A stretch of DNA of 32,000 nt from Bacillus subtilis subsp. subtilis str. 168 (GTDB lineage: Bacteria; Bacillota; Bacilli; Bacillales; Bacillaceae): the NCBI RefSeq assembly GCF_000009045.1, contig NC_000964.3, positions 180,001 to 212,000 on the forward strand, given 5' to 3'. Made by a program: the position numbers and the translations under genes. Position 1 is the first letter of the stretch. The number at the start of each line of letters is the position of its first letter. Positions 20,277-32,000 of this stretch are shown here, piece by piece. Below the pieces are notes generated by a model. The model made no database searches, was not told the DNA's origin, and saw only the letters and a list, made by a program, of their open reading frames with translations.

Positions 20277-22079
20277 ATGTGTGGAATCGTAGGTTATATC
20301 GGTCAGCTTGATGCGAAGGAAATTTTATTAAAAGGGTTAGAGAAGCTTGAGTATCGCGGTTATGACTCTGCTGGTATTGCTGTTGCCAACGAACAGGGAA
20401 TCCATGTGTTCAAAGAAAAAGGACGCATTGCAGATCTTCGTGAAGTTGTGGATGCCAATGTAGAAGCGAAAGCCGGAATTGGGCATACTCGCTGGGCGAC
20501 ACACGGCGAACCAAGCTATCTGAACGCTCACCCGCATCAAAGCGCACTGGGCCGCTTTACACTTGTTCACAACGGCGTGATCGAGAACTATGTTCAGCTG
20601 AAGCAAGAGTATTTGCAAGATGTAGAGCTCAAAAGTGACACCGATACAGAAGTAGTCGTTCAAGTAATCGAGCAATTCGTCAATGGAGGACTTGAGACAG
20701 AAGAAGCGTTCCGCAAAACACTTACACTGTTAAAAGGCTCTTATGCAATTGCTTTATTCGATAACGACAACAGAGAAACGATTTTTGTAGCGAAAAACAA
20801 AAGCCCTCTATTAGTAGGTCTTGGAGATACATTCAACGTCGTAGCATCTGATGCGATGGCGATGCTTCAAGTAACCAACGAATACGTAGAGCTGATGGAT
20901 AAAGAAATGGTTATCGTCACTGATGACCAAGTTGTCATCAAAAACCTTGATGGTGACGTGATTACACGTGCGTCTTATATTGCTGAGCTTGATGCCAGTG
21001 ATATCGAAAAAGGCACGTACCCTCACTACATGTTGAAAGAAACGGATGAGCAGCCTGTTGTTATGCGCAAAATCATCCAAACGTATCAAGATGAAAACGG
21101 CAAGCTGTCTGTGCCTGGCGATATCGCTGCCGCTGTAGCGGAAGCGGACCGCATCTATATCATTGGCTGCGGAACAAGCTACCATGCAGGACTTGTCGGT
21201 AAACAATATATTGAAATGTGGGCAAACGTGCCGGTTGAAGTGCATGTAGCGAGTGAATTCTCCTACAACATGCCGCTTCTGTCTAAGAAACCGCTCTTCA
21301 TTTTCCTTTCTCAAAGCGGAGAAACAGCAGACAGCCGCGCGGTACTCGTTCAAGTCAAAGCGCTCGGACACAAAGCCCTGACAATCACAAACGTACCTGG
21401 ATCAACGCTTTCTCGTGAAGCTGACTATACATTGCTGCTTCATGCAGGCCCTGAGATCGCTGTTGCGTCAACGAAAGCATACACTGCACAAATCGCAGTT
21501 CTGGCGGTTCTTGCTTCTGTGGCTGCTGACAAAAATGGCATCAATATCGGATTTGACCTCGTCAAAGAACTCGGTATCGCTGCAAACGCAATGGAAGCTC
21601 TATGCGACCAGAAAGACGAAATGGAAATGATCGCTCGTGAATACCTGACTGTATCCAGAAATGCTTTCTTCATCGGACGCGGCCTTGACTACTTCGTATG
21701 TGTCGAAGGCGCACTGAAGCTGAAAGAGATTTCTTACATCCAGGCAGAAGGTTTTGCCGGCGGTGAGCTAAAGCACGGAACGATTGCCTTGATCGAACAA
21801 GGAACACCAGTATTCGCACTGGCAACTCAAGAGCATGTAAACCTAAGCATCCGCGGAAACGTCAAAGAAGTTGCTGCTCGCGGAGCAAACACATGCATCA
21901 TCTCACTGAAAGGCCTAGACGATGCGGATGACAGATTCGTATTGCCGGAAGTAAACCCAGCGCTTGCTCCGTTGGTATCTGTTGTTCCATTGCAGCTGAT
22001 CGCTTACTATGCTGCACTGCATCGCGGCTGTGATGTGGATAAACCTCGTAACCTTGCGAAGAGTGTTACTGTGGAGTAA
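20277..22079 (+). CDS. glmS: Glutamine-fructose-6-phosphate aminotransferase GlmS
   Basis: I chose the start at the ATG at 20277, giving MCGIVGY (catalytic Cys after Met removal) with an AGGAGGAAG SD. The protein is 600 aa with two SIS domains and the C-terminus KSVTVE. Confidence 0.98.
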
Positions 22080-22089
22080 TAAATGTTTA

Positions 22090-22125
22090 ACCCCTTTGGA
22101 TAAGATTATCTAAAGGGGTGTTTTT
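22090..22125 (+). terminator. Rho-independent terminator of glmS
   Basis: CCCCTTTGGA (loop 8 nt) TCTAAAGGGG forms a 10-bp stem with one G-U pair, followed by TGTTTTT. Confidence 0.88.
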
Positions 22126-22266
22126 ATGTCCAAAAGCGAAAGAACGTCTACAGTGGAAAAATGGATTAAAGAAGTTGATGGTACAGGACCCGACTATCGA
22201 TCGACCATGGCTATAGATTTAAGATGTTTCCTCATTAGATCGGTCAATCAGGTTAAAAGGCATTAA
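22126..22266 (+). CDS. Hypothetical 46-aa ORF (MSKSERTSTVEKWIKEVDGTGPDYRSTMAIDLRCFLIRSVNQVKRH); possibly a gene remnant
   Basis: It is below the ORF-track cutoff. The ATG abuts the glmS terminator U-run, and the only SD-like sequence (AGGGG) is the terminator stem itself. It may correspond to the small ybbU ORF of older B. subtilis annotations, but I am unsure of that from memory. Confidence 0.25.
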   Translation: MSKSERTSTVEKWIKEVDGTGPDYRSTMAIDLRCFLIRSVNQVKRH

Positions 22267-22546
22267 AACTTGGAGAGAAACTGCTTTTGCCTAACTGAGT
22301 TTTCTAATGTTAATACAGATATAAGAGAGCAGTTCCTCATTAAGATACGCTTTTGATAGCAGTTGGAATTTAGCATGCTAGAAATCCGAAAACCGGAGAG
22401 CCTATTGGAATGATAACGTGTTTTTTTATTGACAATTAATAAAGGGCAAAGAATTCTAGAAGTCGCACTTACAATGTACTTGTGGGATTAGGTTTTAAAG
22501 TTCATTCTTTTTTTATTGAGTACATTCCGGTTAAAGTTGAAATGAT

Positions 22547-23458
22547 TCAGTAAAGGACACGCCATAAATAAAAGGTAGCGTATGATTGCCATTCTTTCCA
22601 TGGAACCGATATTTCTAAGATTTCATCTTTCGTAGGCTTTCGGTTCATATTACGTAATATTTTTATCGAATGAATAAGACCCACATCATCGATTGGAAAA
22701 GCTGTCGGGAACCTAAGGCAGCGCATTAGAACATAATTGGCTGTCCAAGGACCGATTCCTCGTATTTTAATTAAGTTTTTTTCAGCATCTTTAAAGTTCA
22801 TTTTCATTAATTTTTCCCTCGATAATTCTCCACTTGCCATTAATCTGGCTATTCCAATGATATATTCACTTTTTTTCACCGTCATTTTAATATCTGCCAG
22901 GTCGGTAGGGGTTAACCGTGCAATTCGCTCGTACGGTGGGAACACCCAATACTTTTTACCATTCCATTCAATAGAATCGCCAAATGCTTCTACAAATTGC
23001 TTCTTTAAGGAGTACGCGAAGGCTAAGTTAATTTGTTGCCCTAAAACTCCCCAACATAAAGCTTCAAATAAATCGGGAATGCCGATCACTCGCAACCCAT
23101 AAAATTTTCGGGCAGGCATTTTAAGTAATGGATCTGCTTTTGCCATTTCATAAAATGGAGTTAAATCGTTATCAAGATCAAACCATTCATGAATATATTT
23201 TACAATCTCTTCCCGTTTCCACTGCTCAACAGGTCTAGAATCGTTTAGGAATTGAACAATCATTTGTTTATTATTGATTACGCTTACCTGCACTAAGGAC
23301 CGAATTTCCCCAATGGCTATAACTTTTGTAATGATATTGTTCTCTATTTCATACATGCATTCATTTTTTTCCCTGGTTAGGTAGCCAAGGTTCGCATTCA
23401 TGTCGAAAATTTCAGGTAATGTAATGACAATAACATCATTGACTTCATGCCATGTCAC
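22547..23458 (-). CDS. alkA: DNA-3-methyladenine glycosylase II AlkA (HhH-GPD family)
   Basis: 303-aa ORF with an AAGGAGAATGAAAAAG SD region. The helix-hairpin-helix reads IRGIGPWTANYVLMRCL and is followed by the catalytic Asp region FPIDDVG. Confidence 0.93.
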   Translation of the reverse strand: MTWHEVNDVIVITLPEIFDMNANLGYLTREKNECMYEIENNIITKVIAIGEIRSLVQVSVINNKQMIVQFLNDSRPVEQWKREEIVKYIHEWFDLDNDLTPFYEMAKADPLLKMPARKFYGLRVIGIPDLFEALCWGVLGQQINLAFAYSLKKQFVEAFGDSIEWNGKKYWVFPPYERIARLTPTDLADIKMTVKKSEYIIGIARLMASGELSREKLMKMNFKDAEKNLIKIRGIGPWTANYVLMRCLRFPTAFPIDDVGLIHSIKILRNMNRKPTKDEILEISVPWKEWQSYATFYLWRVLY

Positions 23459-23728
23459 TTTTTCATTCTCCTTATCTTAAATAATTATAAGAAAACTCAC
23501 GCTGGTTGAAATTAGTTTATCACATAATCATCTTTACTCATTTTGTTATCTTGCTATTACATTCTAACCACCTTATTTTTTTCTATTTATGAGGTTATAG
23601 TGTAGTTATCAAGAATGCTAAACGGGAGTAGATAAAAATGGCCCAAGATATAAAAAACGCGTGTCGAAAATTTAAATTGGGATTCAATTCAAAGAATTAG
23701 ATGAGCATTGTAAGGAGAGGTGAGATAA

Positions 23729-24364
23729 ATGCCGGATAGTATCAATAACGGACATAAAGAGAGCCATGATCATAGAATTTCGAATGATGCAGAAATGATA
23801 ACAGATGAAAAGTGGCAAGCAATTATAAATAATGATGCAGCGTACAATAATCAATTTTTCTACGCTGTTAAATCGACAGGGATATTCTGTAAACCATCCT
23901 GTAAATCTCGCGTTCCGAAAAAAGAAAATGTATGTATCTTTCCAAACACAGAACAAGCTCTCCGCGCAAATTTTCGCCCTTGTAAACGTTGCAAGCCCAC
24001 TAATGAAAAAATGCCTGATAGCGAGTGGGTTGATTTAATTACTGAATACATTGATAAAAATTTCACAGAAAAATTAACGCTAGAATCGTTAGCAGATATT
24101 TGTCATGGGAGTCCGTATCATATGCATCGAACATTTAAAAAAATTAAAGGCATTACGCTGGTTGAGTATATACAACAAGTTAGAGTACACGCGGCTAAAA
24201 AGTATTTGATTCAGACAAATAAAGCGATTGGAGATATCGCTATATGTGTGGGTATAGCTAACGCGCCTTATTTTATTACTTTATTTAAAAAGAAAACTGG
24301 ACAGACACCAGCACGATTTCGTCAAATGAGTAAAATGGAGGAAACGTACAATGGAAACAAATAA
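23729..24364 (+). CDS. adaA: Methylphosphotriester-DNA alkyltransferase / AraC-type transcriptional activator AdaA
   Basis: 211-aa ORF with an AAGGAGAGGTG SD. It has an Ada Zn-binding Cys4 region (FCKPSCKS...PCKRCKP) and a C-terminal AraC HTH (LADICHGSPYHMHRTFKKIKG...IAICVGIANAPYFITLFKKKTG). Confidence 0.93.
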   Translation: MPDSINNGHKESHDHRISNDAEMITDEKWQAIINNDAAYNNQFFYAVKSTGIFCKPSCKSRVPKKENVCIFPNTEQALRANFRPCKRCKPTNEKMPDSEWVDLITEYIDKNFTEKLTLESLADICHGSPYHMHRTFKKIKGITLVEYIQQVRVHAAKKYLIQTNKAIGDIAICVGIANAPYFITLFKKKTGQTPARFRQMSKMEETYNGNK

Positions 24365-24890
24365 ACCAACCCTTTATTGGTCTTTACTAATGTTCAAGGA
24401 TTGGAATTTTTATATTGCTTCAACTTTAAAGGGGCTTGTGTTTGTAGGTTCACAGAACAAACCAATCGAGGAATTGTTCGAATGGGCTAGGAAACGCTTT
24501 CCGGGAAGTCTTCTTGTTGAAGATGATGATAAGCTTGAACCCTATGCCGTTGAAATCACTCAATATCTAGAAGGAAAGCGGAAAAACTTTACTGTTCCAG
24601 TTGAGTACGCCGGTACGCAATTTCAGCTAGCCGTCTGGAATGCACTTTGTGAAATTCCTTATGGACAGACGAAATCCTATTCCGACATTGCAAATGATAT
24701 AAATAAACCAGCAGCTGTTCGTGCTGTAGGTGCGGCTATTGGGGCTAATCCGGTATTAATTACTGTACCGTGCCATCGTGTAATAGGAAAGAATGGCTCA
24801 TTAACTGGCTATCGGGGCGGATTTGAAATGAAGACACTGCTCCTCGATCTGGAAAAGCGAGCTTCATCTGAAATGGATGTTCCTCATTGA
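24351..24890 (+). CDS. adaB: O6-methylguanine-DNA methyltransferase AdaB
   Basis: 179-aa ORF with the active-site motif VPCHRVIG. Its start overlaps the 3' end of adaA by 14 nt, suggesting translational coupling. Confidence 0.93.
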   Translation: METNKPTLYWSLLMFKDWNFYIASTLKGLVFVGSQNKPIEELFEWARKRFPGSLLVEDDDKLEPYAVEITQYLEGKRKNFTVPVEYAGTQFQLAVWNALCEIPYGQTKSYSDIANDINKPAAVRAVGAAIGANPVLITVPCHRVIGKNGSLTGYRGGFEMKTLLLDLEKRASSEMDVPH

Positions 24891-25231
24891 AAGTGAATCA
24901 TCTATAATGGGTTGGATTCTTTTAGAGGAAAGTAAAGACCAGTTTACTGATAAACTTGACAACTTTTAAAATTTAGCATATCTTATACGTAACTTAATAA
25001 TCGATGCAGATGTTTATTTTTCCTTTTAAAATATGTAGGCCTTTAGCATTCTTTTCATATTTCATTTTAAATATTGATAGGATGAAAAAGTATCCTAATA
25101 AAAAAGGAAGAGAACATGAGTCGATTTATTTGATAATCAGGACTATATTAAAGGAAATGAAAACATAGCATAAAGTAAAGACCAATAATAAGGTAGCTCT
25201 TCAAAAAACTTCGCTGAAGTTAGTTGAAGTG

Positions 25232-25299
25232 AAGCCGACAATTTTCAGGATTCAATGATCTAACATAATCATTGAAATTTTGAAGTTGTCGGCTTTTTT
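25232..25299 (+). terminator. Long interrupted hairpin followed by a T-run in the adaB-ndhF spacer; either a terminator or an attenuator
   Basis: The outer stem AAGCCGACAA / TTGTCGGCTT is a perfect 10 bp. The inner stem TTCAATGAT / ATCATTGAA is a perfect 9 bp with the 8-nt loop CTAACATA. The middle segment pairs only partly. It is followed by TTTTTT. The reverse strand has no U-run, so it acts on the + strand only. Confidence 0.65.
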
Positions 25300-25408
25300 G
25301 TTGGAAAAAAATAGAGATAAATAAAAATTGAAATAAATAATAGACAAATATGATCTGATTGAAAGGTCTTTTGACCAATAATGAGTTTTAAAAAAGGGAG
25401 AATTTAGA

Positions 25409-26926
25409 ATGTTAGTTTCGCTGAGTTTGTCATCATTATTAACATTATTTTTTATTATGCTTATGGCTTCTGGGATTAGTGGACTATTGTTTTTACATCC
25501 GCGTGTACCCTTGAGTTTTGTTCGCATTCATATTGGGATCTTGGCTTTACCACTTTTGGTTTCCTTACTGATTCTTGCCAATAGTGGTGTGAGTGGAAAT
25601 GTTGGCCCTTGGCACTTAGATTCCTTAGCTTGTTTAATGACTTTCTTTGTTCTTGCAATTGGATTCATCATTCAGCGTTTTTCTGTACGTTACTTAATGG
25701 GGGATCGATCTTATCGAAAATATTTTACGCTTTTTACTTTCACAACAGGAGCTGCTTCAATGACATGGTTAAGTGGTGATCTCCGCTTGATGGTTCTATT
25801 TTGGGGAGCAACTCTTGTTGGTTTAACCTTACTTATAAGGTTAAACAGTGCTTGGCAAGTGGCTAGTGAAGCAGCCAAAATTTCTGGACGGTTATTTTTG
25901 TTAAGTTGGTTTTCTTTGTTTTTTGCGATGATGTGGCTTTTTCATGCCACAGGTCAATGGCAGCTATCATTGGTTGTAACAAATGAAAGTTTAGCTGGGC
26001 TGGGAGAATGGGAGAGAACAGGGATTCAGCTATTGATTGTACTGGCGGTGATCATTCCTGCAGCTCAATGGCCGTTCCAAAGATGGTTGGTTGAGTCTAT
26101 TGTTGCTCCCACCCCAGTTTCTGCAATTATGCATGCAGGTTTAGTAAATGCTGGAGGAATAATACTAACTCGATTTTCACCTCTATTTCATGGTGGTATC
26201 GCTTCGATTATCTTACTTCTGCTTGCTAGCATTTCTGTATTGATTGGAACTGGAATTAGTTTAGTTCAGGTTGATTATAAACGCCAGTTAGTAGGCTCCA
26301 CGATTGGACAAATGGGGTTTATGCTCATTCAGTGTGCATTAGGCGCCTATATAGCAGCCATTATTCACCTTATTTTACATGGTTTATTCAAGGCTACGTT
26401 GTTTCTACAGGCTGGTTCAGCAGTAGGGCGTCATGAAGTATCGACTCGCACTAATGAAAGAACATCCTATTTATGGGTCATGGCTGGTCGGATTTTATCC
26501 TTAGTTATAGGTGTTGCTTTTTGGCTCACTGCTCCTGGAGACGGGTATCACTTAATCAGTGCGCTGATCTTAGGGTGGTCATTGTCCGTTTCTTGGGATC
26601 AGCTTGTCGCTTTTGGAGAGGGCCGAATTGGCCGGATTGCCGGTTTAACTGTTTTAGGAGGAGCAGCCCTCGTATATTTTATCATTCATCACCTTTTCTA
26701 TAAGTGGCTGCATACAACCATTTTTCAAAGTGTTCAACCTCCAATGTCAGCTGTCATGATTGTCGTATGTCTCTTACTCTTTGGCAGTGCTTTAGGTACG
26801 TGGGTTGCTCGTCATCGTTCTTCCGTTTTTTTCGCGGTACTCTATCTTTGGTTAGTCCGATTAGGTGAAGCAAAACCAAAGTCAGTAGAGAGTCACCCAG
26901 ACTACCTTAAACAATATATTTCATAA
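25409..26926 (+). CDS. ndhF: Orphan NuoL/NdhF-like proton-conducting membrane subunit (Mrp-antiporter fold); DabB/MpsA-type component
   Basis: 505-aa polytopic ORF with an AAGGGAG SD. The conserved NuoL/ND5-type core reads PTPVSAIMHAGLVNAGGIIL ... GSTIGQMGFMLIQCALG ... HLILHGLFKATLFL. No other complex I genes are nearby. Confidence 0.9.
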   Translation: MLVSLSLSSLLTLFFIMLMASGISGLLFLHPRVPLSFVRIHIGILALPLLVSLLILANSGVSGNVGPWHLDSLACLMTFFVLAIGFIIQRFSVRYLMGDRSYRKYFTLFTFTTGAASMTWLSGDLRLMVLFWGATLVGLTLLIRLNSAWQVASEAAKISGRLFLLSWFSLFFAMMWLFHATGQWQLSLVVTNESLAGLGEWERTGIQLLIVLAVIIPAAQWPFQRWLVESIVAPTPVSAIMHAGLVNAGGIILTRFSPLFHGGIASIILLLLASISVLIGTGISLVQVDYKRQLVGSTIGQMGFMLIQCALGAYIAAIIHLILHGLFKATLFLQAGSAVGRHEVSTRTNERTSYLWVMAGRILSLVIGVAFWLTAPGDGYHLISALILGWSLSVSWDQLVAFGEGRIGRIAGLTVLGGAALVYFIIHHLFYKWLHTTIFQSVQPPMSAVMIVVCLLLFGSALGTWVARHRSSVFFAVLYLWLVRLGEAKPKSVESHPDYLKQYIS

Positions 26927-26940
26927 GGAGCTAATCTGAG

Positions 26941-29556
26941 ATGGGCATTACATCCGTATTAACGAAAGATAATGTAAAAAAGATAGATACAGATATTGAT
27001 GTTCAAGAAAGGGATCTTAACGTTTTCATTACATCTGCCAGCCGAGTGATTGCGCCACTTTGGCCTATTTCTACATTTGCTGCACGTAATCCGTGGATGG
27101 GACTTGAAAACCAACCTTTTGATCAGGTTGCAAGTTGGTTGAAAAACACTCGCGATGTTGATATATACCCTAGTGCGTCTATGATCCGTTCAGCAAAGAA
27201 TAAAGGTGAGATTGATGAAGATTTTGTGGAAATGGGGCTGCAGCGTTGGCTTGATTCACATTCCTATCACATCCCACGGGACGTAGCAGAGCGATTTTGT
27301 CATGCTGCATTAAAGTTAGATCCCCTGCCTTCCGACCTTTTATCATCACATGAGCTGGAGAAATTAGTAAGTGAATGTAGTGGATTGGATCATATCGAGA
27401 ATGTGTTTATGCAGCCACTAAGTTCGTATATAGAGAATCAAGATGGTGAAAGGCTAGTCAATATACTAGATCATCATGTCATTAAATGGAGTAAATTATA
27501 TCTTGATGACTCTCAAGCGGGTTGGACAATGCCTAATCGTGAGGAAGGTTTCTATCGTGCTTGGCAGCATCTTATTCAATATGATCCAGCACTTAGCAAA
27601 AAGCAGCGAGAAAGGGTAAAAGGTTGGCCGAAAGAGGCACATTTGGCTTTACAAGAAGCTTTATTCGCACTAGAAATCCCAGAGTCAGAAATCCAGACTT
27701 ATCTTGAAGGTCATTTACTTTCATTACCTGGATGGGCAGGGATGATGCTTTGGCGCTCCCAACAATCGAGCCACGAACATGCACTACTAACAGAATATTT
27801 AGCGGTTCGAATATCCATGGAGTGGGCTCTTATAAAGCCATACTTACCTTTGACTAATGAACGATCTAAGAAAACAATTTCAATTGCTCCCCTTATAGCA
27901 GCTTGGATTCATTGGGGTGGGCTTACATTAGAAGAATGGTCACAGATGACGGCCAGTGAACAAAACGAATATTTATCATTTGCCTACAGCTTTGATGAGA
28001 AACTTCGCAAGAAACTTTGGTTAGAAGCTTGGGAACAAACGTACACTGATCGATTAAGCCAGAAGATCATCTCGAAACAACGTGAAACCGGCCGTGAAAA
28101 ATCTGCATTAGCTCAATTAGCATTCTGCATCGATGTACGATCAGAACCTTTTCGTCGTCAACTAGAAAAAGAAGGCCCGTTTGAAACGATTGGTATTGCT
28201 GGTTTCTTCGGGGTGCCGATTGCAACTTGTGAACTTGGCAGTAAACACAGTCATGCTTCCTTGCCGATCATACAAAAACCGCAAAATAAAATAAAAGAGT
28301 TCGCAGATGAGGATGTATTCAAAAAATACAATCAACGGAAGCAAGCAATTCATTCTTTAAGCCATACCTTTAAAACGATGAAGCAGAATGCGCTTTCGAG
28401 CTTACTACTGCCTGAGCTAAGTGGACCTTGGCTTACTCTGCAAATGGCAGCCCGTAGCTTTGTGCCAAGAAAGGCGGGTCGTTTCATTCGTAATCTCCGT
28501 GAGGCTTGGTTACGCAAACCTGATACAAAACTCTCGCTTCATCATGATGCTACAGAGGCAGAAATACCTGTGGGTTTTACTGATGAAGAAAAAGTGAACT
28601 ATGCTCGCCAAGCATTAAAAATGATGGGGTTAACAGAGAACATCGCACCATTGGTCGTGATTTGTGGGCATGGCAGTCAAAGTACTAATAATCCTTATTC
28701 TGCAGCCCTTGATTGTGGTGCCTGTGGTGGAGCGGCCGGTGGATTCAATGCAAGAGTTTTAGCTGCTTTATGTAATCTATCAGAGGTACGAGAAGCTCTT
28801 TTAGCTGAAGGAATTAAAATTCCTGAGGATACAGTTTTTGCAGCAGCTGAACATAATACAACAGTAGATGAATTACATTGGCTTTATGTACCAGAGCTTT
28901 CCGAAGCTGCACAAGAAGCATTTGAACAAATTGAAGCCGTTATGCCGAAAGTGAGACATCATGTAAACGCAGAACGTCTAGCCCAATTACCGAATTTCCA
29001 ATCGAAGCTAAAAAATCCGAAGGCTGAGGCAAACCGATTTGCGGAAGATTGGAGTGAGATACGTCCGGAATGGGGACTGGCTCGTAATGCCGCTTTTATT
29101 ATCGGTAAACGTGAATTAACTCAGGATTGTGATTTGGAAGGCAGAGCCTTTCTCCATAATTATGATTGGAAGCAGGATGAAAGCGGTGAACTCCTAGCAA
29201 ATATTATTGTAGGACCTGGAACTGTAGCCCAATGGATTAATTTACAATATTACGCATCAACGGTAGCACCTCATTATTATGGCAGCGGAAATAAAGCAAC
29301 TCAAACCGTTACTGCAGGTCTCGGCGTTATGCAGGGGAATGCAAGCGATTTGTTAGCCGGACTGCCTTGGCAATCCGTCATGGAATCAGATCACGAGGCC
29401 TATCATTCTCCTCTTCGTTTATTGATACTCATCCAAGCACCTAGAGAATATGTAGAACGGTTATTAAATCATGATTCAGCATTTCTGCAAAAAGTTCAAA
29501 ATGGATGGGTCCGACTGGCTAGTCTTGATCCAGAAGGATGTTGGGAAAGCTGGTAA
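26941..29556 (+). CDS. ybcC: DUF2309 protein YbcC; DabA/MpsB-type, beta-carbonic-anhydrase-like component of an inorganic-carbon pump
   Basis: 871-aa soluble ORF with a TAAGGAG SD, 14 nt after the ndhF stop. It has a CxDxR motif (C396-I-D398-V-R400, nt 28126-28140) and ICGH577GS...LDC592GAC595GG (nt 28669-28725), with H-to-C spacing of 15 residues. Confidence 0.9.
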   Translation: MGITSVLTKDNVKKIDTDIDVQERDLNVFITSASRVIAPLWPISTFAARNPWMGLENQPFDQVASWLKNTRDVDIYPSASMIRSAKNKGEIDEDFVEMGLQRWLDSHSYHIPRDVAERFCHAALKLDPLPSDLLSSHELEKLVSECSGLDHIENVFMQPLSSYIENQDGERLVNILDHHVIKWSKLYLDDSQAGWTMPNREEGFYRAWQHLIQYDPALSKKQRERVKGWPKEAHLALQEALFALEIPESEIQTYLEGHLLSLPGWAGMMLWRSQQSSHEHALLTEYLAVRISMEWALIKPYLPLTNERSKKTISIAPLIAAWIHWGGLTLEEWSQMTASEQNEYLSFAYSFDEKLRKKLWLEAWEQTYTDRLSQKIISKQRETGREKSALAQLAFCIDVRSEPFRRQLEKEGPFETIGIAGFFGVPIATCELGSKHSHASLPIIQKPQNKIKEFADEDVFKKYNQRKQAIHSLSHTFKTMKQNALSSLLLPELSGPWLTLQMAARSFVPRKAGRFIRNLREAWLRKPDTKLSLHHDATEAEIPVGFTDEEKVNYARQALKMMGLTENIAPLVVICGHGSQSTNNPYSAALDCGACGGAAGGFNARVLAALCNLSEVREALLAEGIKIPEDTVFAAAEHNTTVDELHWLYVPELSEAAQEAFEQIEAVMPKVRHHVNAERLAQLPNFQSKLKNPKAEANRFAEDWSEIRPEWGLARNAAFIIGKRELTQDCDLEGRAFLHNYDWKQDESGELLANIIVGPGTVAQWINLQYYASTVAPHYYGSGNKATQTVTAGLGVMQGNASDLLAGLPWQSVMESDHEAYHSPLRLLILIQAPREYVERLLNHDSAFLQKVQNGWVRLASLDPEGCWESW

Positions 29557-29632
29557 TGATGAATCTAAGCATTTATCAAATGGATTTGTTACTCAATACA
29601 AAAATGATAAACATAAGGAAGAGGTGTGCTGT

Positions 29633-30160
29633 ATGAATGTAAACCAAAATAAAAAAGTATTATTTTTGACGGATATTGAAAACGGTTTGGAGCCTATTTT
29701 ACAAGAAGCGACTAACACTTCTGCAGAGAATATGTTGACTATACAAAGCTATGGTGCCAGTATTTCACATCCTTATGGAGAAATCATGAGGTCTGTTATT
29801 TTTGCGATTTACCAGGAAGATGTTGAGGAGATTTTTGTAGTAGGAACAAAAGATAAGAAGACTTCTGCAGGTAATGGACTAACTCAACTTGAAACAATGA
29901 AAGATAAAATACAAACATTGGATTATCTGTTTCAAAATTGCAAGCCTGAATTTTTAGGTGGTACGGTCGATGAATGGCTAAATGAAAATAGCAGTGACAC
30001 CATTGAAAAAAGTGTTGATATGATTCGACATCATCCCCTAGTGCCGTCATATGTTAAAGTTAGAGGTTTATTCGTTAATCATAAGGGTGGAAAACCCTCA
30101 ATCGCGGAGGTTCCTGATGTTAAAACAGGTCAAGCCATGCCTGATCATTGCTTGTCATGA
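29633..30160 (+). CDS. ybcF: YbcF, beta-carbonic-anhydrase-like protein apparently lacking the zinc ligands
   Basis: I chose the start at the ATG at 29633 (MNVNQNKKVLFLTDIENG...), after an AAGGAAGAGGTG SD, giving 175 aa. The 54-codon upstream extension in the ORF track overlaps ybcC and has no SD. By-eye alignment to beta-CAs puts LFLTDIEN against GCSDSR, TIQSYGAS against VHRNVAN, and VEEIFVVGTKDKK against VEHIIICGHYGCG. Confidence 0.8.
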   Translation: MNVNQNKKVLFLTDIENGLEPILQEATNTSAENMLTIQSYGASISHPYGEIMRSVIFAIYQEDVEEIFVVGTKDKKTSAGNGLTQLETMKDKIQTLDYLFQNCKPEFLGGTVDEWLNENSSDTIEKSVDMIRHHPLVPSYVKVRGLFVNHKGGKPSIAEVPDVKTGQAMPDHCLS

Positions 30161-30223
30161 TGAAATGCAGGTTTAACTTCTAAACGCACCCATATATGGA
30201 GAAAGCAGTTCTAAGGAGATTGT

Positions 30224-30514
30224 ATGAGCGCTAATTTAACTGATTTTGTCACGAAAACAATAGAGGAAATGAACTCGTTTGATCGTGAAAATATGGAATG
30301 TATAAAAAAACTAATTAGAAAAGCAATTGATTTTTATCATCTAAAGTCTTATGAAGAAGTTGAGGAAACCCATTCAGGAAATGTTCGATTTTTGCATGTC
30401 CACTCTATGATGGAAGAAAATATGTTATCCAAAATGATAGTGGTCACAAGAAACGGTAAAACTGATTTGGATATTGAAGGTGTATATGAAGGATATGTTG
30501 TAAGAGAATATTAA
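30224..30514 (+). CDS. ybcH: Hypothetical 96-aa cytosolic protein YbcH
   Basis: ORF with a strong SD (TAAGGAGA, 5-nt spacer). It is acidic and has no TM segment or motif I recognise. It is co-directional with its neighbours and no terminator separates them. Confidence 0.7.
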   Translation: MSANLTDFVTKTIEEMNSFDRENMECIKKLIRKAIDFYHLKSYEEVEETHSGNVRFLHVHSMMEENMLSKMIVVTRNGKTDLDIEGVYEGYVVREY

Positions 30515-30571
30515 TGAGACGAAATCACAAATAGAATATGCCAATTTTTTTGCTCAGGAGATGTATTAGAT

Positions 30572-30946
30572 ATGAAAAAGTCTAAGGGTTCTATTGAATC
30601 AGAGATCAGTAAGTCCATTACTCAATGGGAGAAGGATTATCTTGGGCGGGGGTCTGTATCTGTTAAGACTGATATACTGCGGGACATGATCATCGTCAAT
30701 TTAAAAGGGATTTTAACACCAGCCGAATATGTAGTTTGTGGATCAAAAGAGGGTATGTTATCTATCAAACAAACTCGTTCAGAGTTAGTCGAATCAGGTA
30801 TAGAAGGCCTTAAGGATATTATCTTAAAAATAACCGGAGAAAAAGTGAAAAGTTTTCATACTGATTTAAGCTCCCGGACAGGTGAACGAGTGATGGTATT
30901 TAAATTATGTAATGATCTAGAGAAAAATTTGGAAAAGATCTTATAA
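30572..30946 (+). CDS. ybcI: DUF2294 protein YbcI (MpsC-like)
   Basis: 124-aa ORF with an AGGAG SD about 11 nt upstream. The N-terminus ...ISKSITQWEKDYLGRGSVSVKTDILRDMIIVNLKGILTPAE is typical of the DUF2294 family, members of which are annotated as MpsC (from memory). Confidence 0.78.
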   Translation: MKKSKGSIESEISKSITQWEKDYLGRGSVSVKTDILRDMIIVNLKGILTPAEYVVCGSKEGMLSIKQTRSELVESGIEGLKDIILKITGEKVKSFHTDLSSRTGERVMVFKLCNDLEKNLEKIL

Positions 30947-31123
30947 TCTAAAGAAAATAAATGTTTTGACGGTGTGGAATTTGTTGTGAATTGAACATAA
31001 AGAACTGCCGATTCTTTTGTTTTACAATTATGGTATCATTGATAACTTTTATTCATATCCTAAGCGGACATAAAGAGATGTCAATTCATAGTACACTGTC
31101 ATGTTATTCCTGTCGAAAGATCT

Positions 31124-31157
31124 AACATCCGCTGTTGTTATGAGCGGATGTTTTTTT
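31124..31157 (+). terminator. Rho-independent terminator; the first one downstream of ndhF...ybcI
   Basis: AACATCCGCT (loop 9 nt) AGCGGATGTT forms a 10-bp stem with a T-run (TTTTTTT from 31151). It lies 178 nt after the ybcI stop. Confidence 0.85.
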
Positions 31158-31393
31158 ACATCTATTTTAAATACATGAATTTGATGCTGGTGATTAGTCA
31201 CTTGAACAATATTTGAAAACATCCTTGTCACCTGCCGGGTTTCCCCAAGTGTTTAGTGACATGATTATGAGACCAACTTCGTAAAGCTTGCTGATAAATT
31301 TAAGCGGTGAACAAAATTGATATGCTGTCTTCAGTTTCATTTCACGGAATTAGTCAGAGATAAACCTTTAATTAAATATATCCAAAAAACGGA

Positions 31394-31421
31394 TTGACAT
31401 ATCGAAATATAACGATATAAT
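31394..31421 (+). promoter_or_regulatory. ybzH promoter (TTGACA-16 nt-TATAAT) overlapped by the operator-like inverted repeat ACATATC-N10-GATATAA
   Basis: TTGACA is at 31394-31399 and TATAAT at 31416-31421. The ATG at 31429 is only 7 nt past the -10 and there is no SD. The inverted repeat is at 31397-31420. Confidence 0.7.
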
Positions 31422-31428
31422 AATCGAT

Positions 31429-31731
31429 ATGGAACCAATTGAAGTATTCAAAGCCTTATCAAATGAATCAAGGCTGCAAATTTTACAATGGCTGAAGGAG
31501 CCCGATCGTCATTTTGCACCCCATGAAGGGATTGATATGAACACAATCGGGGTATGTGTCAGTCAAATAACAGACAAATTGAAAATGACGCAATCGACAG
31601 CTTCTCAATATCTTACCATCCTTTTAAGAGCCGGCCTAATTAAGGCGGAGCGAATCGGAAAGTACACGTATTATAAAAGAGATGAAGAAGCCATTGGGAA
31701 ACTTGCTGACTTTCTTAAAACAGAGATATAA
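31429..31731 (+). CDS. ybzH: ArsR/SmtB-family winged-helix transcriptional regulator
   Basis: 100-aa ORF. It begins IEVFKALSNESRLQILQWL (ArsR N-terminal helix signature), and the HTH region reads ITDKLKMTQSTASQYLTILLRAGLIKAERIGKYTYY. Confidence 0.82.
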   Translation: MEPIEVFKALSNESRLQILQWLKEPDRHFAPHEGIDMNTIGVCVSQITDKLKMTQSTASQYLTILLRAGLIKAERIGKYTYYKRDEEAIGKLADFLKTEI

Positions 31732-31732
31732 A

Positions 31733-31760
31733 AATAAACATCAAAAGATGTTTATTTTTA
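31733..31760 (+). terminator. Terminator hairpin after ybzH
   Basis: ATAAACATC (loop AAAA) GATGTTTAT forms a 9-bp A/T-rich stem followed by TTTT. Confidence 0.65.
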
Positions 31761-31766
31761 CACCAT

Positions 31767-31830
31767 ACATATCGACATATTACGATGTGTTTATTTTTTT
31801 ATAATAACATATCGATAATTCGTGATATGT
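31767..31830 (+). promoter_or_regulatory. Two further copies of the ACATATC-N10-GATATGT operator motif in the ybcL upstream region
   Basis: ACATATCGACATATTACGATGTGT is at 31767-31790 and ACATATCGATAATTCGTGATATGT at 31807-31830. A TATAAT at 31800-31805 lies between them. Confidence 0.65.
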
Positions 31831-31858
31831 TTATTAATAATTAAGGAGTGAATGTTTT

Positions 31859-32000
31859 ATGTCTAACACTTGGAAAATTTATATTTTAGCCATTGTCAGC
31901 TTTTTAGTTGGAACCTCAGAGTACATCATTTCCGGAATTTTGGATCAAATTGCTCATACTCTCGGGATCACTTTAGCTGCCGCGGGCCAGCTTATTACCA
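31859..32000 (+). CDS. ybcL: MFS transporter YbcL, N-terminal 47 codons; continues off the right edge
   Basis: The ATG at 31859 follows an AAGGAG SD (31843-31848). The translation MSNTWKIYILAIVSFLVGTSEYIISGILDQIAHTLGITLAAAGQLIT is a typical MFS TM1 plus loop. It is open to the window end. Confidence 0.8.
   Translation, partial: MSNTWKIYILAIVSFLVGTSEYIISGILDQIAHTLGITLAAAGQLIT

Follow-up and report, generated by a model that had tools for sequence, protein, structure and literature searches.

The ybcF gene of Bacillus subtilis subsp. subtilis str. 168, which public databases name 'carbonic anhydrase', encodes a homologue of the beta-carbonic anhydrases (beta-CAs) which, judged from its sequence and a predicted structure, keeps their fold, and sequence comparison places it in a large zinc-less sister family of the small Cab/TvaCA1-like beta-CAs. 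We consider it rather probable that YbcF is a zinc-less descendant of such an enzyme that assists or regulates carbon uptake without catalysis of its own; its role is most likely that of a non-enzymatic helper rather than of a third CA. The whole stretch of DNA analysed, called the window here, covers 32,000 nucleotides (positions 180,001 to 212,000 of NC_000964.3). Earlier publications have described the beta-CA-like sequence and structure of YbcF and the place of its gene in the ndhF-mpsB operon. What is new here is the loss of the zinc site across the family and the occurrence of the family together with SbtA-type transporters and MpsC.

Fan et al. 2021 (PMC8552792) noted that in B. subtilis, B. 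anthracis and S. sciuri a putative CA comes directly after MpsAB, and omitted it from their alignment of ligands. Barnes and Helmann (bioRxiv, September 2026; 10.64898/2026.09.08.750065) renamed the gene canC and inferred a CA function for it; the predicted structure of CanC was aligned with CanA and CanB, with the zinc ligands boxed for CanA and CanB only. Both sources treat this same gene as a carbonic anhydrase, whereas the analysis below finds its zinc site lost. In the passages of PMC8552792 and 10.64898/2026.09.08.750065 that deal with the gene, no mention was found of the family-wide loss of the site or of the link to SbtA-type transporters and MpsC, and full-text literature searches uncovered no account of dead CAs forming a stand-alone beta-class family with ties to carbon-uptake operons.

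The gene order in the window is adaA, adaB and then, on the forward strand, ndhF, ybcC, ybcF, ybcH and ybcI, with short intergenic gaps from ndhF to ybcI (Table 1). A terminator scan found no terminator-like sites in these gaps; its matches fall within coding sequence and are as numerous as in shuffled sequences. In an NCBIfam scan only NdhF was matched, with no family found for YbcF, YbcC, YbcH or YbcI. The extent of ybcF was taken from the list of open reading frames (ORFs) and the translation, and the 175-aa start is backed by AAGGAAGAGGTG and by the N-termini of orthologues. A longer ORF beginning at the in-frame ATG at 29471 was rejected, since it overlaps the 3' end of ybcC and the N-termini of orthologues disagree with it; database entries of 219-220 aa (e.g. 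P0001, P0004 and P0005) begin YbcF at an upstream in-frame ATG (29471-29632). The ybcH gene is present in just 13/79 related loci, namely in the B. subtilis group, Virgibacillus and loci labelled Metabacillus and Halalkalibacter, and is therefore a late addition to the operon. The Metabacillus- and Halalkalibacter-labelled loci look identical to each other. The operon itself may have moved horizontally.

Table 1. Genes and sequence features of the ybcF operon, with positions in the window.
Feature	Positions	Strand	Description
ndhF	25409..26926	+	DabB/MpsA-type membrane subunit; first gene of the operon; Pfam Proton_antipo_M 2.5e-73
ybcC	26941..29556	+	DabA/MpsB; Pfam DabA 8.4e-271; keeps C396-x-D398-x-R400 and H577
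Shine-Dalgarno-like AAGGAAGAGGTG	29615-29626	+	Read directly from the sequence; ends 6 nt before ATG 29633
ybcF coding sequence	29633..30160	+	175 aa plus stop; putative beta-CA-fold protein without zinc ligands
Strand beta1 and degenerate motif 1, K8-V-L-F-L-T-D14-I-E16-N-G18	29654..29686	+	Model strand 8-14
H46-P-Y-G-E-I-M-R-S54	29768..29794	+	HPFGxIMRS in the canonical sister clade
Strand beta3 and degenerate motif 2, E66-I-F-V-V-G71-T72-K-D-K75-K76	29828..29860	+	Model strand 64-72
R132-H-H134-P-L-V-P138	30026..30046	+	IRNHPLxP in canonical relatives
ybcH	30224..30514	+	Pfam DUF6407 3.6e-40
ybcI	30572..30946	+	MpsC, formerly DUF2294; Pfam MpsC 2e-39

The evidence for descent from beta-CAs grows stronger with the sensitivity of the method. 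Alone, YbcF scores 17.3 bits against Pfam Pro_CA (PF00484) and does not reach the gathering cut-off of 25.7, and among the 120 listed homologues only 2 come with a precomputed PF00484 match. When E values up to 1 are allowed, 30/37 members of the family match Pro_CA (best 5.7e-6). A phmmer search of the PDB with YbcF finds the Trichomonas beta-CA 6y04 at 1.4e-5, while with a profile of 37 homologues as the query the values are 7.6e-12 for 6y04, 2e-5 for Methanobacterium Cab (1g5c) and 8e-4 for the CS2 hydrolase 3ten. When the YbcF family was compared by hhalign with 22 canonical relatives, the probability was 99.9% and E was 5e-33 over 161 columns. The AlphaFold2 model is of moderate quality (mean pLDDT 67.8, with a good core and poor residues 76-116); it shows the beta-CA strand order in the core together with the expected strands and helices, and a Foldseek search of the PDB with this model returned beta-CA folds in each of the 50 top places (best E 4.5e-9). 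The beta-CA fold proposed for YbcF in the preliminary description thus holds, and the profile and structure searches that were named there as a possible refutation did recover the relationship.

On this evidence, YbcF and the small beta-CAs of Cab/TvaCA1 type (1g5c, 6y04; PF00484) share one fold and a clear common descent. Both are about 170-190 aa long and have the motifs HP(F/Y)GxIMRS, WL and HPLxP in common. Conserved alike in the zinc-less and canonical groups described below are P47, G49, M52 and R53 of the first motif, W115 and L116, H134, P135, L136 and P138 of the last motif, as well as Y60, E66 and G145; H134 is found in 121/121 YbcF homologues. Unlike the Cab/TvaCA1-type enzymes, YbcF has all three zinc ligands and the Asp-Arg dyad replaced, apart from its Pfam score below the gathering cut-off.

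The register of the former zinc site was obtained from HMMER alignments with PDB 6y04 and 1g5c, the alignment of the 150 representatives to a profile and the hhalign comparison with canonical relatives, all of which agree. Motif 1 of YbcF (K8-G18) aligns with K-x-x-x-x-T-C-M-D-T-R of canonical relatives, and motif 2 (E66-K76) with E-x-x-V-I-G-H-x-D-C-G. Consequently, D14 occupies the column of the first Cys ligand, E16 that of the catalytic Asp and G18 that of the dyad Arg, while T72 replaces the His ligand and K75 the second Cys ligand. The preliminary description had reached the same conclusion about the absence of Cys, His, Cys and Arg, and its reading of G71-T72-K73-D74-K75 as G-H-x-x-C is borne out by the four independent alignments, as are the flanking beta-strands by the AlphaFold2 strands at residues 8-14 and 64-72. 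Its reading of motif 1 as L12/D14/E16 was two residues out, and the catalytic Asp that it took to survive does not: the Asp in question, D14, stands in a Cys column, and Glu16 in the Asp column. T72 is replaced by Ile in 22/121 close homologues.

Another register restoring a Cys/His/Cys site, which had been raised as a possible objection, is not possible. YbcF contains only two Cys residues, C103 and C173, of which C173 sits in a C-terminal tail absent from most homologues, so that the conserved core has C103 as its sole Cys and no other register can restore a Cys2His site; C103 is itself Ser in 21/121 homologues. An alternative metal site composed of H46, C103 and H134 was also considered and rejected, as H46 and H134 occur in the zinc-containing relatives too and C103 is conserved solely in the close subfamily.

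Is the loss of the site peculiar to YbcF, or is it a property of a larger family? When 1.84 billion representatives were searched exhaustively with the family profile, 555 matched at E <= 0.001, and the best 150 of the 555 were aligned. These 150 include 108 full-length proteins, 60 of which have none of the three ligands, 41 of which are canonical and 7 of which are partial; the combination C-D-R-H-C occurs in 38/41 of the canonical relatives. Scored by profile alignment, the occupancy of the ligand columns therefore extends to the whole family a loss that had been described from YbcF alone. The 60 zinc-less representatives show 60 different residue quintets at the five columns, which means that no replacement site is conserved. 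The same columns drift even among the 79 genomic orthologues, in which D14 changes to Gly, T72 to Ile, Ser or Ala, and K75 to Asp, Asn or Arg. The canonical group alone retains A26, G32-D33, K38, A40, S54 and G76, and the zinc-less group has conserved residues of its own (L10, E32, E62, Y98 and P105). A neighbour-joining tree unites 41/41 canonical proteins in a single clade from which zinc-less members are absent, and this rough tree fits a single ancient loss of the zinc site.

Some relatives depart from the two main patterns. In P0159 (L087:567-6561), Cys, His and Cys are kept and Glu and Asn replace the Asp-Arg dyad; its gene is divergent from a cluster encoding Mrp-like antiporter subunits and hydrogenase or complex-I-like subunits. 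The metagenomic proteins P0164, P0167 and P0172 (about 400 aa) contain a canonical relative as one domain of a larger protein. In P0172 this domain lies close to the N-terminus, whereas in P0164 and P0167 it is C-terminal and preceded by about 220 additional residues.

Could YbcF (CanC) nevertheless be an active CA, that is, a third, partly redundant isozyme whose carboxylates D14, E16 and D74 bind another metal, or one that works metal-free? Among the close homologues of Bacillus type, these residues are indeed well kept (D14 in 116/121, E16 in 111/121 and D74 in 101/121). In the wider family, however, in which each of the 60 zinc-less representatives has its own quintet, 44% have Gly in place of D14 and no residue predominates at position 75, and the residues that line the site in canonical relatives (A26, G32-D33, K38, A40, S54 and G76) have been lost as well. 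The strongest argument for activity comes from genetics (10.64898/2026.09.08.750065). [quoted passage not shown] The authors suggest that the isozymes might differ in metal and propose alternative cofactors. However, a severe defect is seen in the canB mpsB double mutant although canA and canC are still present in it; this conflicts with the sufficiency of CanC, and the authors themselves call the results a conflict. The evidence in the passages of the preprint on canC is genetic, with neither an enzyme assay nor complementation of the gene, and the deletion in the quadruple mutant is a marked one that lies upstream of ybcH-ybcI. The single canC deletion shows no growth defect, its colonies being slightly larger if anything. 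Furthermore, a cytosolic enzyme co-transcribed with an energy-coupled pump would oppose that pump (PMC8552792). The genetics of canC is thus the chief evidence against a pure pseudo-enzyme, real but inconclusive, and on balance we regard an active third isozyme as unlikely.

We now turn to the genes around ybcF. In 72/79 species-level genomes, ndhF-ybcC immediately precedes the ybcF orthologue and shares its strand, and MpsC is found within 8 kb of the orthologue in 73/79 loci, at a variable position. Four genomic loci, from Chryseomicrobium (two species), Effusibacillus and Tepidibacillus, have neither ndhF nor ybcC; here the order is MpsC, an SbtA-type transporter (Pfam Sbt_1) and a YbcF-like gene. 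A DUF6671 gene follows the YbcF-like gene in L070, L073 and L079 according to the ORF pattern, confirmed by Pfam in L070 and L073. Seven distant zinc-less representatives were also sampled, of which six are informative, the upstream edge of P0163 being uninformative. DabA, Sbt_1 or MpsC adjoins 6/7 of them, Sbt_1 in three cases. With X for the zinc-less YbcF-like gene, the orders are MpsC, Sbt_1, X in P0140 and P0154; Sbt_1, X in P0160; DabB, DabA, X, MpsC in P0130; DabA, X in P0131; and MpsC, X in P0147, where P0160 and P0147 lie on contigs of about 1 kb with a single neighbour visible. The linkage of the YbcF family in operons with carbon-uptake transporters of two unrelated types is therefore conserved.

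Several further features of these neighbourhoods were recorded. Clusters of MpsC, Sbt_1 and YbcF-like genes with no DabA nearby are located at L073:6354-9421, L070:877-3988, L077:6304-8493, L081:6490-8492 and L080:184-2278; the recurrent Sbt_1 cluster often ends in DUF6671, and the MpsC of L081 is 77% identical to YbcI of the window. The Chryseomicrobium cluster comes after Tn7-like tnsD and tnsE (L073:2189-5570). Two B. cereus-group genomes (L040:8010-8495; L042) carry a solitary YbcF-like copy of 161 aa, in which the residues before motif 1 are missing; no gene for carbon uptake lies within 8 kb of this copy, which has genes for CarD, an FAD oxidoreductase and an MFS transporter as its neighbours. 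For P0153, the nearest canonical relative examined, the gene directly after is that of a SulP/STAS transporter and not DabA or SbtA. P0153 has the motifs TCMDTRL and GHEDCGM, and its locus (L084:8001-10363; also L085 and L086) contains resolvase, integrase and transposase genes as well.

Such neighbourhoods bear on the suggestion, made in the preliminary description, that YbcF docks onto YbcC (DabA), in which case it would be a dedicated subunit of the DAB/MpsAB pump. The position of ybcF right after ybcC on the same strand in most genomes, and of distant members likewise beside DabA, speaks for such a dock, and so does the fact that beta-CAs act as dimers and DabA is itself beta-CA-like. However, zinc-less family members also follow SbtA-type transporters at loci without DabA, and no YbcF-like gene was found in the MpsC, DabB, DabA loci of Geobacillus, so that any role of YbcF must be dispensable. 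Moreover, S. aureus MpsAB functions in E. coli without a YbcF-like protein (PMC6689103), and the YbcF profile has no sequence similarity to YbcC. For the same reason, the idea that YbcF is a copy of a DabA domain was rejected (probability 0.1% for the YbcF profile against YbcC). The pump needs no second catalytic site, as CxDxR and His motifs are present in YbcC itself. Since one subfamily might still bind the Dab-type and another the Sbt-type transporter with which it is linked, the suggestion is weakened rather than refuted. In its specific form it is not supported, and a dedicated YbcC partner seems to us an improbable role for YbcF.

The most conserved companion of the YbcF family is MpsC (YbcI), which is also present in the SbtA-type loci. 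No other protein is shared by the two contexts, and for this reason the neighbourhoods are better explained by YbcF working with MpsC, or by a general control of uptake, than by a dock specific for DabA. Taken together, the DabBA, SbtA-type and MpsC contexts make an accessory or regulatory carbon-uptake protein the likeliest reading of YbcF, and not specifically a partner of DabA. MpsC itself is strikingly conserved: none of its 120 listed homologues falls below 71% identity, and most belong to Bacillaceae, with others from Staphylococcus, Geobacillus and Alicyclobacillus. The AlphaFold2 model of MpsC is confident (pLDDT 92), and no PDB fold matched it at E <= 0.001; its best fold matches, uL23-like ribosomal proteins and TRAPPC3, have TM-scores of about 0.3-0.4 and were discarded as giving no functional clue. 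A PDB sequence search had zero matches with MpsC and chance-level ones only with YbcH, and a literature search for DUF2294 returned nothing relevant. Deletion of mpsC in S. aureus has no phenotype, and MpsAB is functional in E. coli without MpsC (PMC6689103). The term MpsC is absent from the DAB2 cryo-EM preprint, and no extra pump subunit appears in its passages on accessory proteins, regulation and Bacillus.

The selection on ybcF was estimated from 12 orthologue comparisons. The ranges of dN/dS are 0.18-0.38 for YbcF, 0.13-0.25 for NdhF, 0.09-0.19 for YbcC and 0.05-0.13 for MpsC. YbcF is therefore under the weakest constraint in the operon, yet its dN/dS is far below 1 in 12/12 comparisons, and the gene is kept by purifying selection. 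A pseudogene was rejected, the ORFs being intact in 79 species with dN/dS < 0.4. A possible horizontal movement of the operon is suggested by its synonymous divergence from other genera of only 0.3-0.7 (L011, L013 and L016), by the GC content of the window, which falls from 0.45-0.47 to 0.34-0.42 from about position 22000 (22000-32000), and by the Tn7-like genes before the Chryseomicrobium cluster.

A remaining alternative is that YbcF is the functionless relic of a former CA and a mere passenger of the operon. Its dN/dS, the highest of the four operon proteins compared, the normal growth of the single deletion (10.64898/2026.09.08.750065) and the existence of DabBA-MpsC loci without YbcF would all be expected of a relic. 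However, besides the low dN/dS and the intact ORFs, at least 60 zinc-less clusters (at 50% identity) keep H134 in 100%, W115 in 98% and R53 in 93%, the zinc-less group has conserved E32, E62, Y98 and P105 of its own, and the gene context is preserved over two transporter types. Therefore, a relic appears very unlikely.

We return to the reading of YbcF as a non-catalytic accessory or regulator. As a possible history, the ancestor would have been a small Cab/TvaCA1-like beta-CA in which the first Cys became Asp14, the His Thr72, the second Cys Lys75 and the dyad Glu16 and Gly18, while the fold stayed. YbcF would then no longer perform CO2 hydration by the beta-CA mechanism, and probably works together with MpsC or the cytoplasmic face of the transporter. 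The loss of catalysis may even have been favoured, given that a free CA beside an energy-coupled pump would allow the accumulated bicarbonate to escape as CO2, as is established for carbon-concentrating mechanisms. The same argument has been made for MpsAB plus carbonic anhydrase (PMC8552792). Counted against the accessory reading are the weakest constraint in the operon, the missing gene in the Geobacillus loci and the only moderate model. For the non-catalytic character asserted in the preliminary description, the family-wide loss of ligands and dyad, purifying selection and the linkage with the pump are favourable, and the growth of the triple mutant in the preprint counts against it. The pseudo-enzyme reading of YbcF as such appears well supported by the comparative evidence.

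Dead CA homologues are known elsewhere, such as the alpha-class CA-related proteins VIII, X and XI, the gamma-CA-like domains of CcmM and the zinc-less C-terminal domain of CsoSCA. By analogy, YbcF would resemble them in that the enzyme fold is kept, the metal ligands are lost and the role is non-catalytic, and CcmM and CsoSCA also act within carbon-concentrating systems. These proteins are of another class or are domains, whereas YbcF stands alone as a beta-class protein, and its family is linked to operons for membrane carbon uptake in Bacillota. A second parallel is SbtB, the PII-like regulator encoded beside cyanobacterial sbtA. Like the YbcF-like proteins, SbtB is a small soluble protein whose gene lies directly beside that of a bicarbonate transporter, and in the MpsC, Sbt_1, YbcF-like clusters the YbcF-like gene takes the equivalent place; the folds of SbtB and YbcF are unrelated. 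This leads to a speculative and rather doubtful extension, in which a zinc-less YbcF-like protein and MpsC would form a portable two-protein control module of Bacillota, serving both the DabBA pump and the SbtA-type symporter, with the dead CA fold sensing CO2 or bicarbonate, as a functional counterpart of SbtB built from different folds.

If YbcF is catalytically dead, the CA counts of Bacillus genomes need to be revised, and the phenotypes of the B. subtilis multiple mutants need to be reinterpreted. The YbcF family joins two unrelated types of transporter to MpsC, and offers a clean and testable case of an enzyme that may have turned into an accessory of carbon uptake. It could thus serve as an entry point to the control of bicarbonate supply in heterotrophic Firmicutes, including the pathogens of the B. 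anthracis group.
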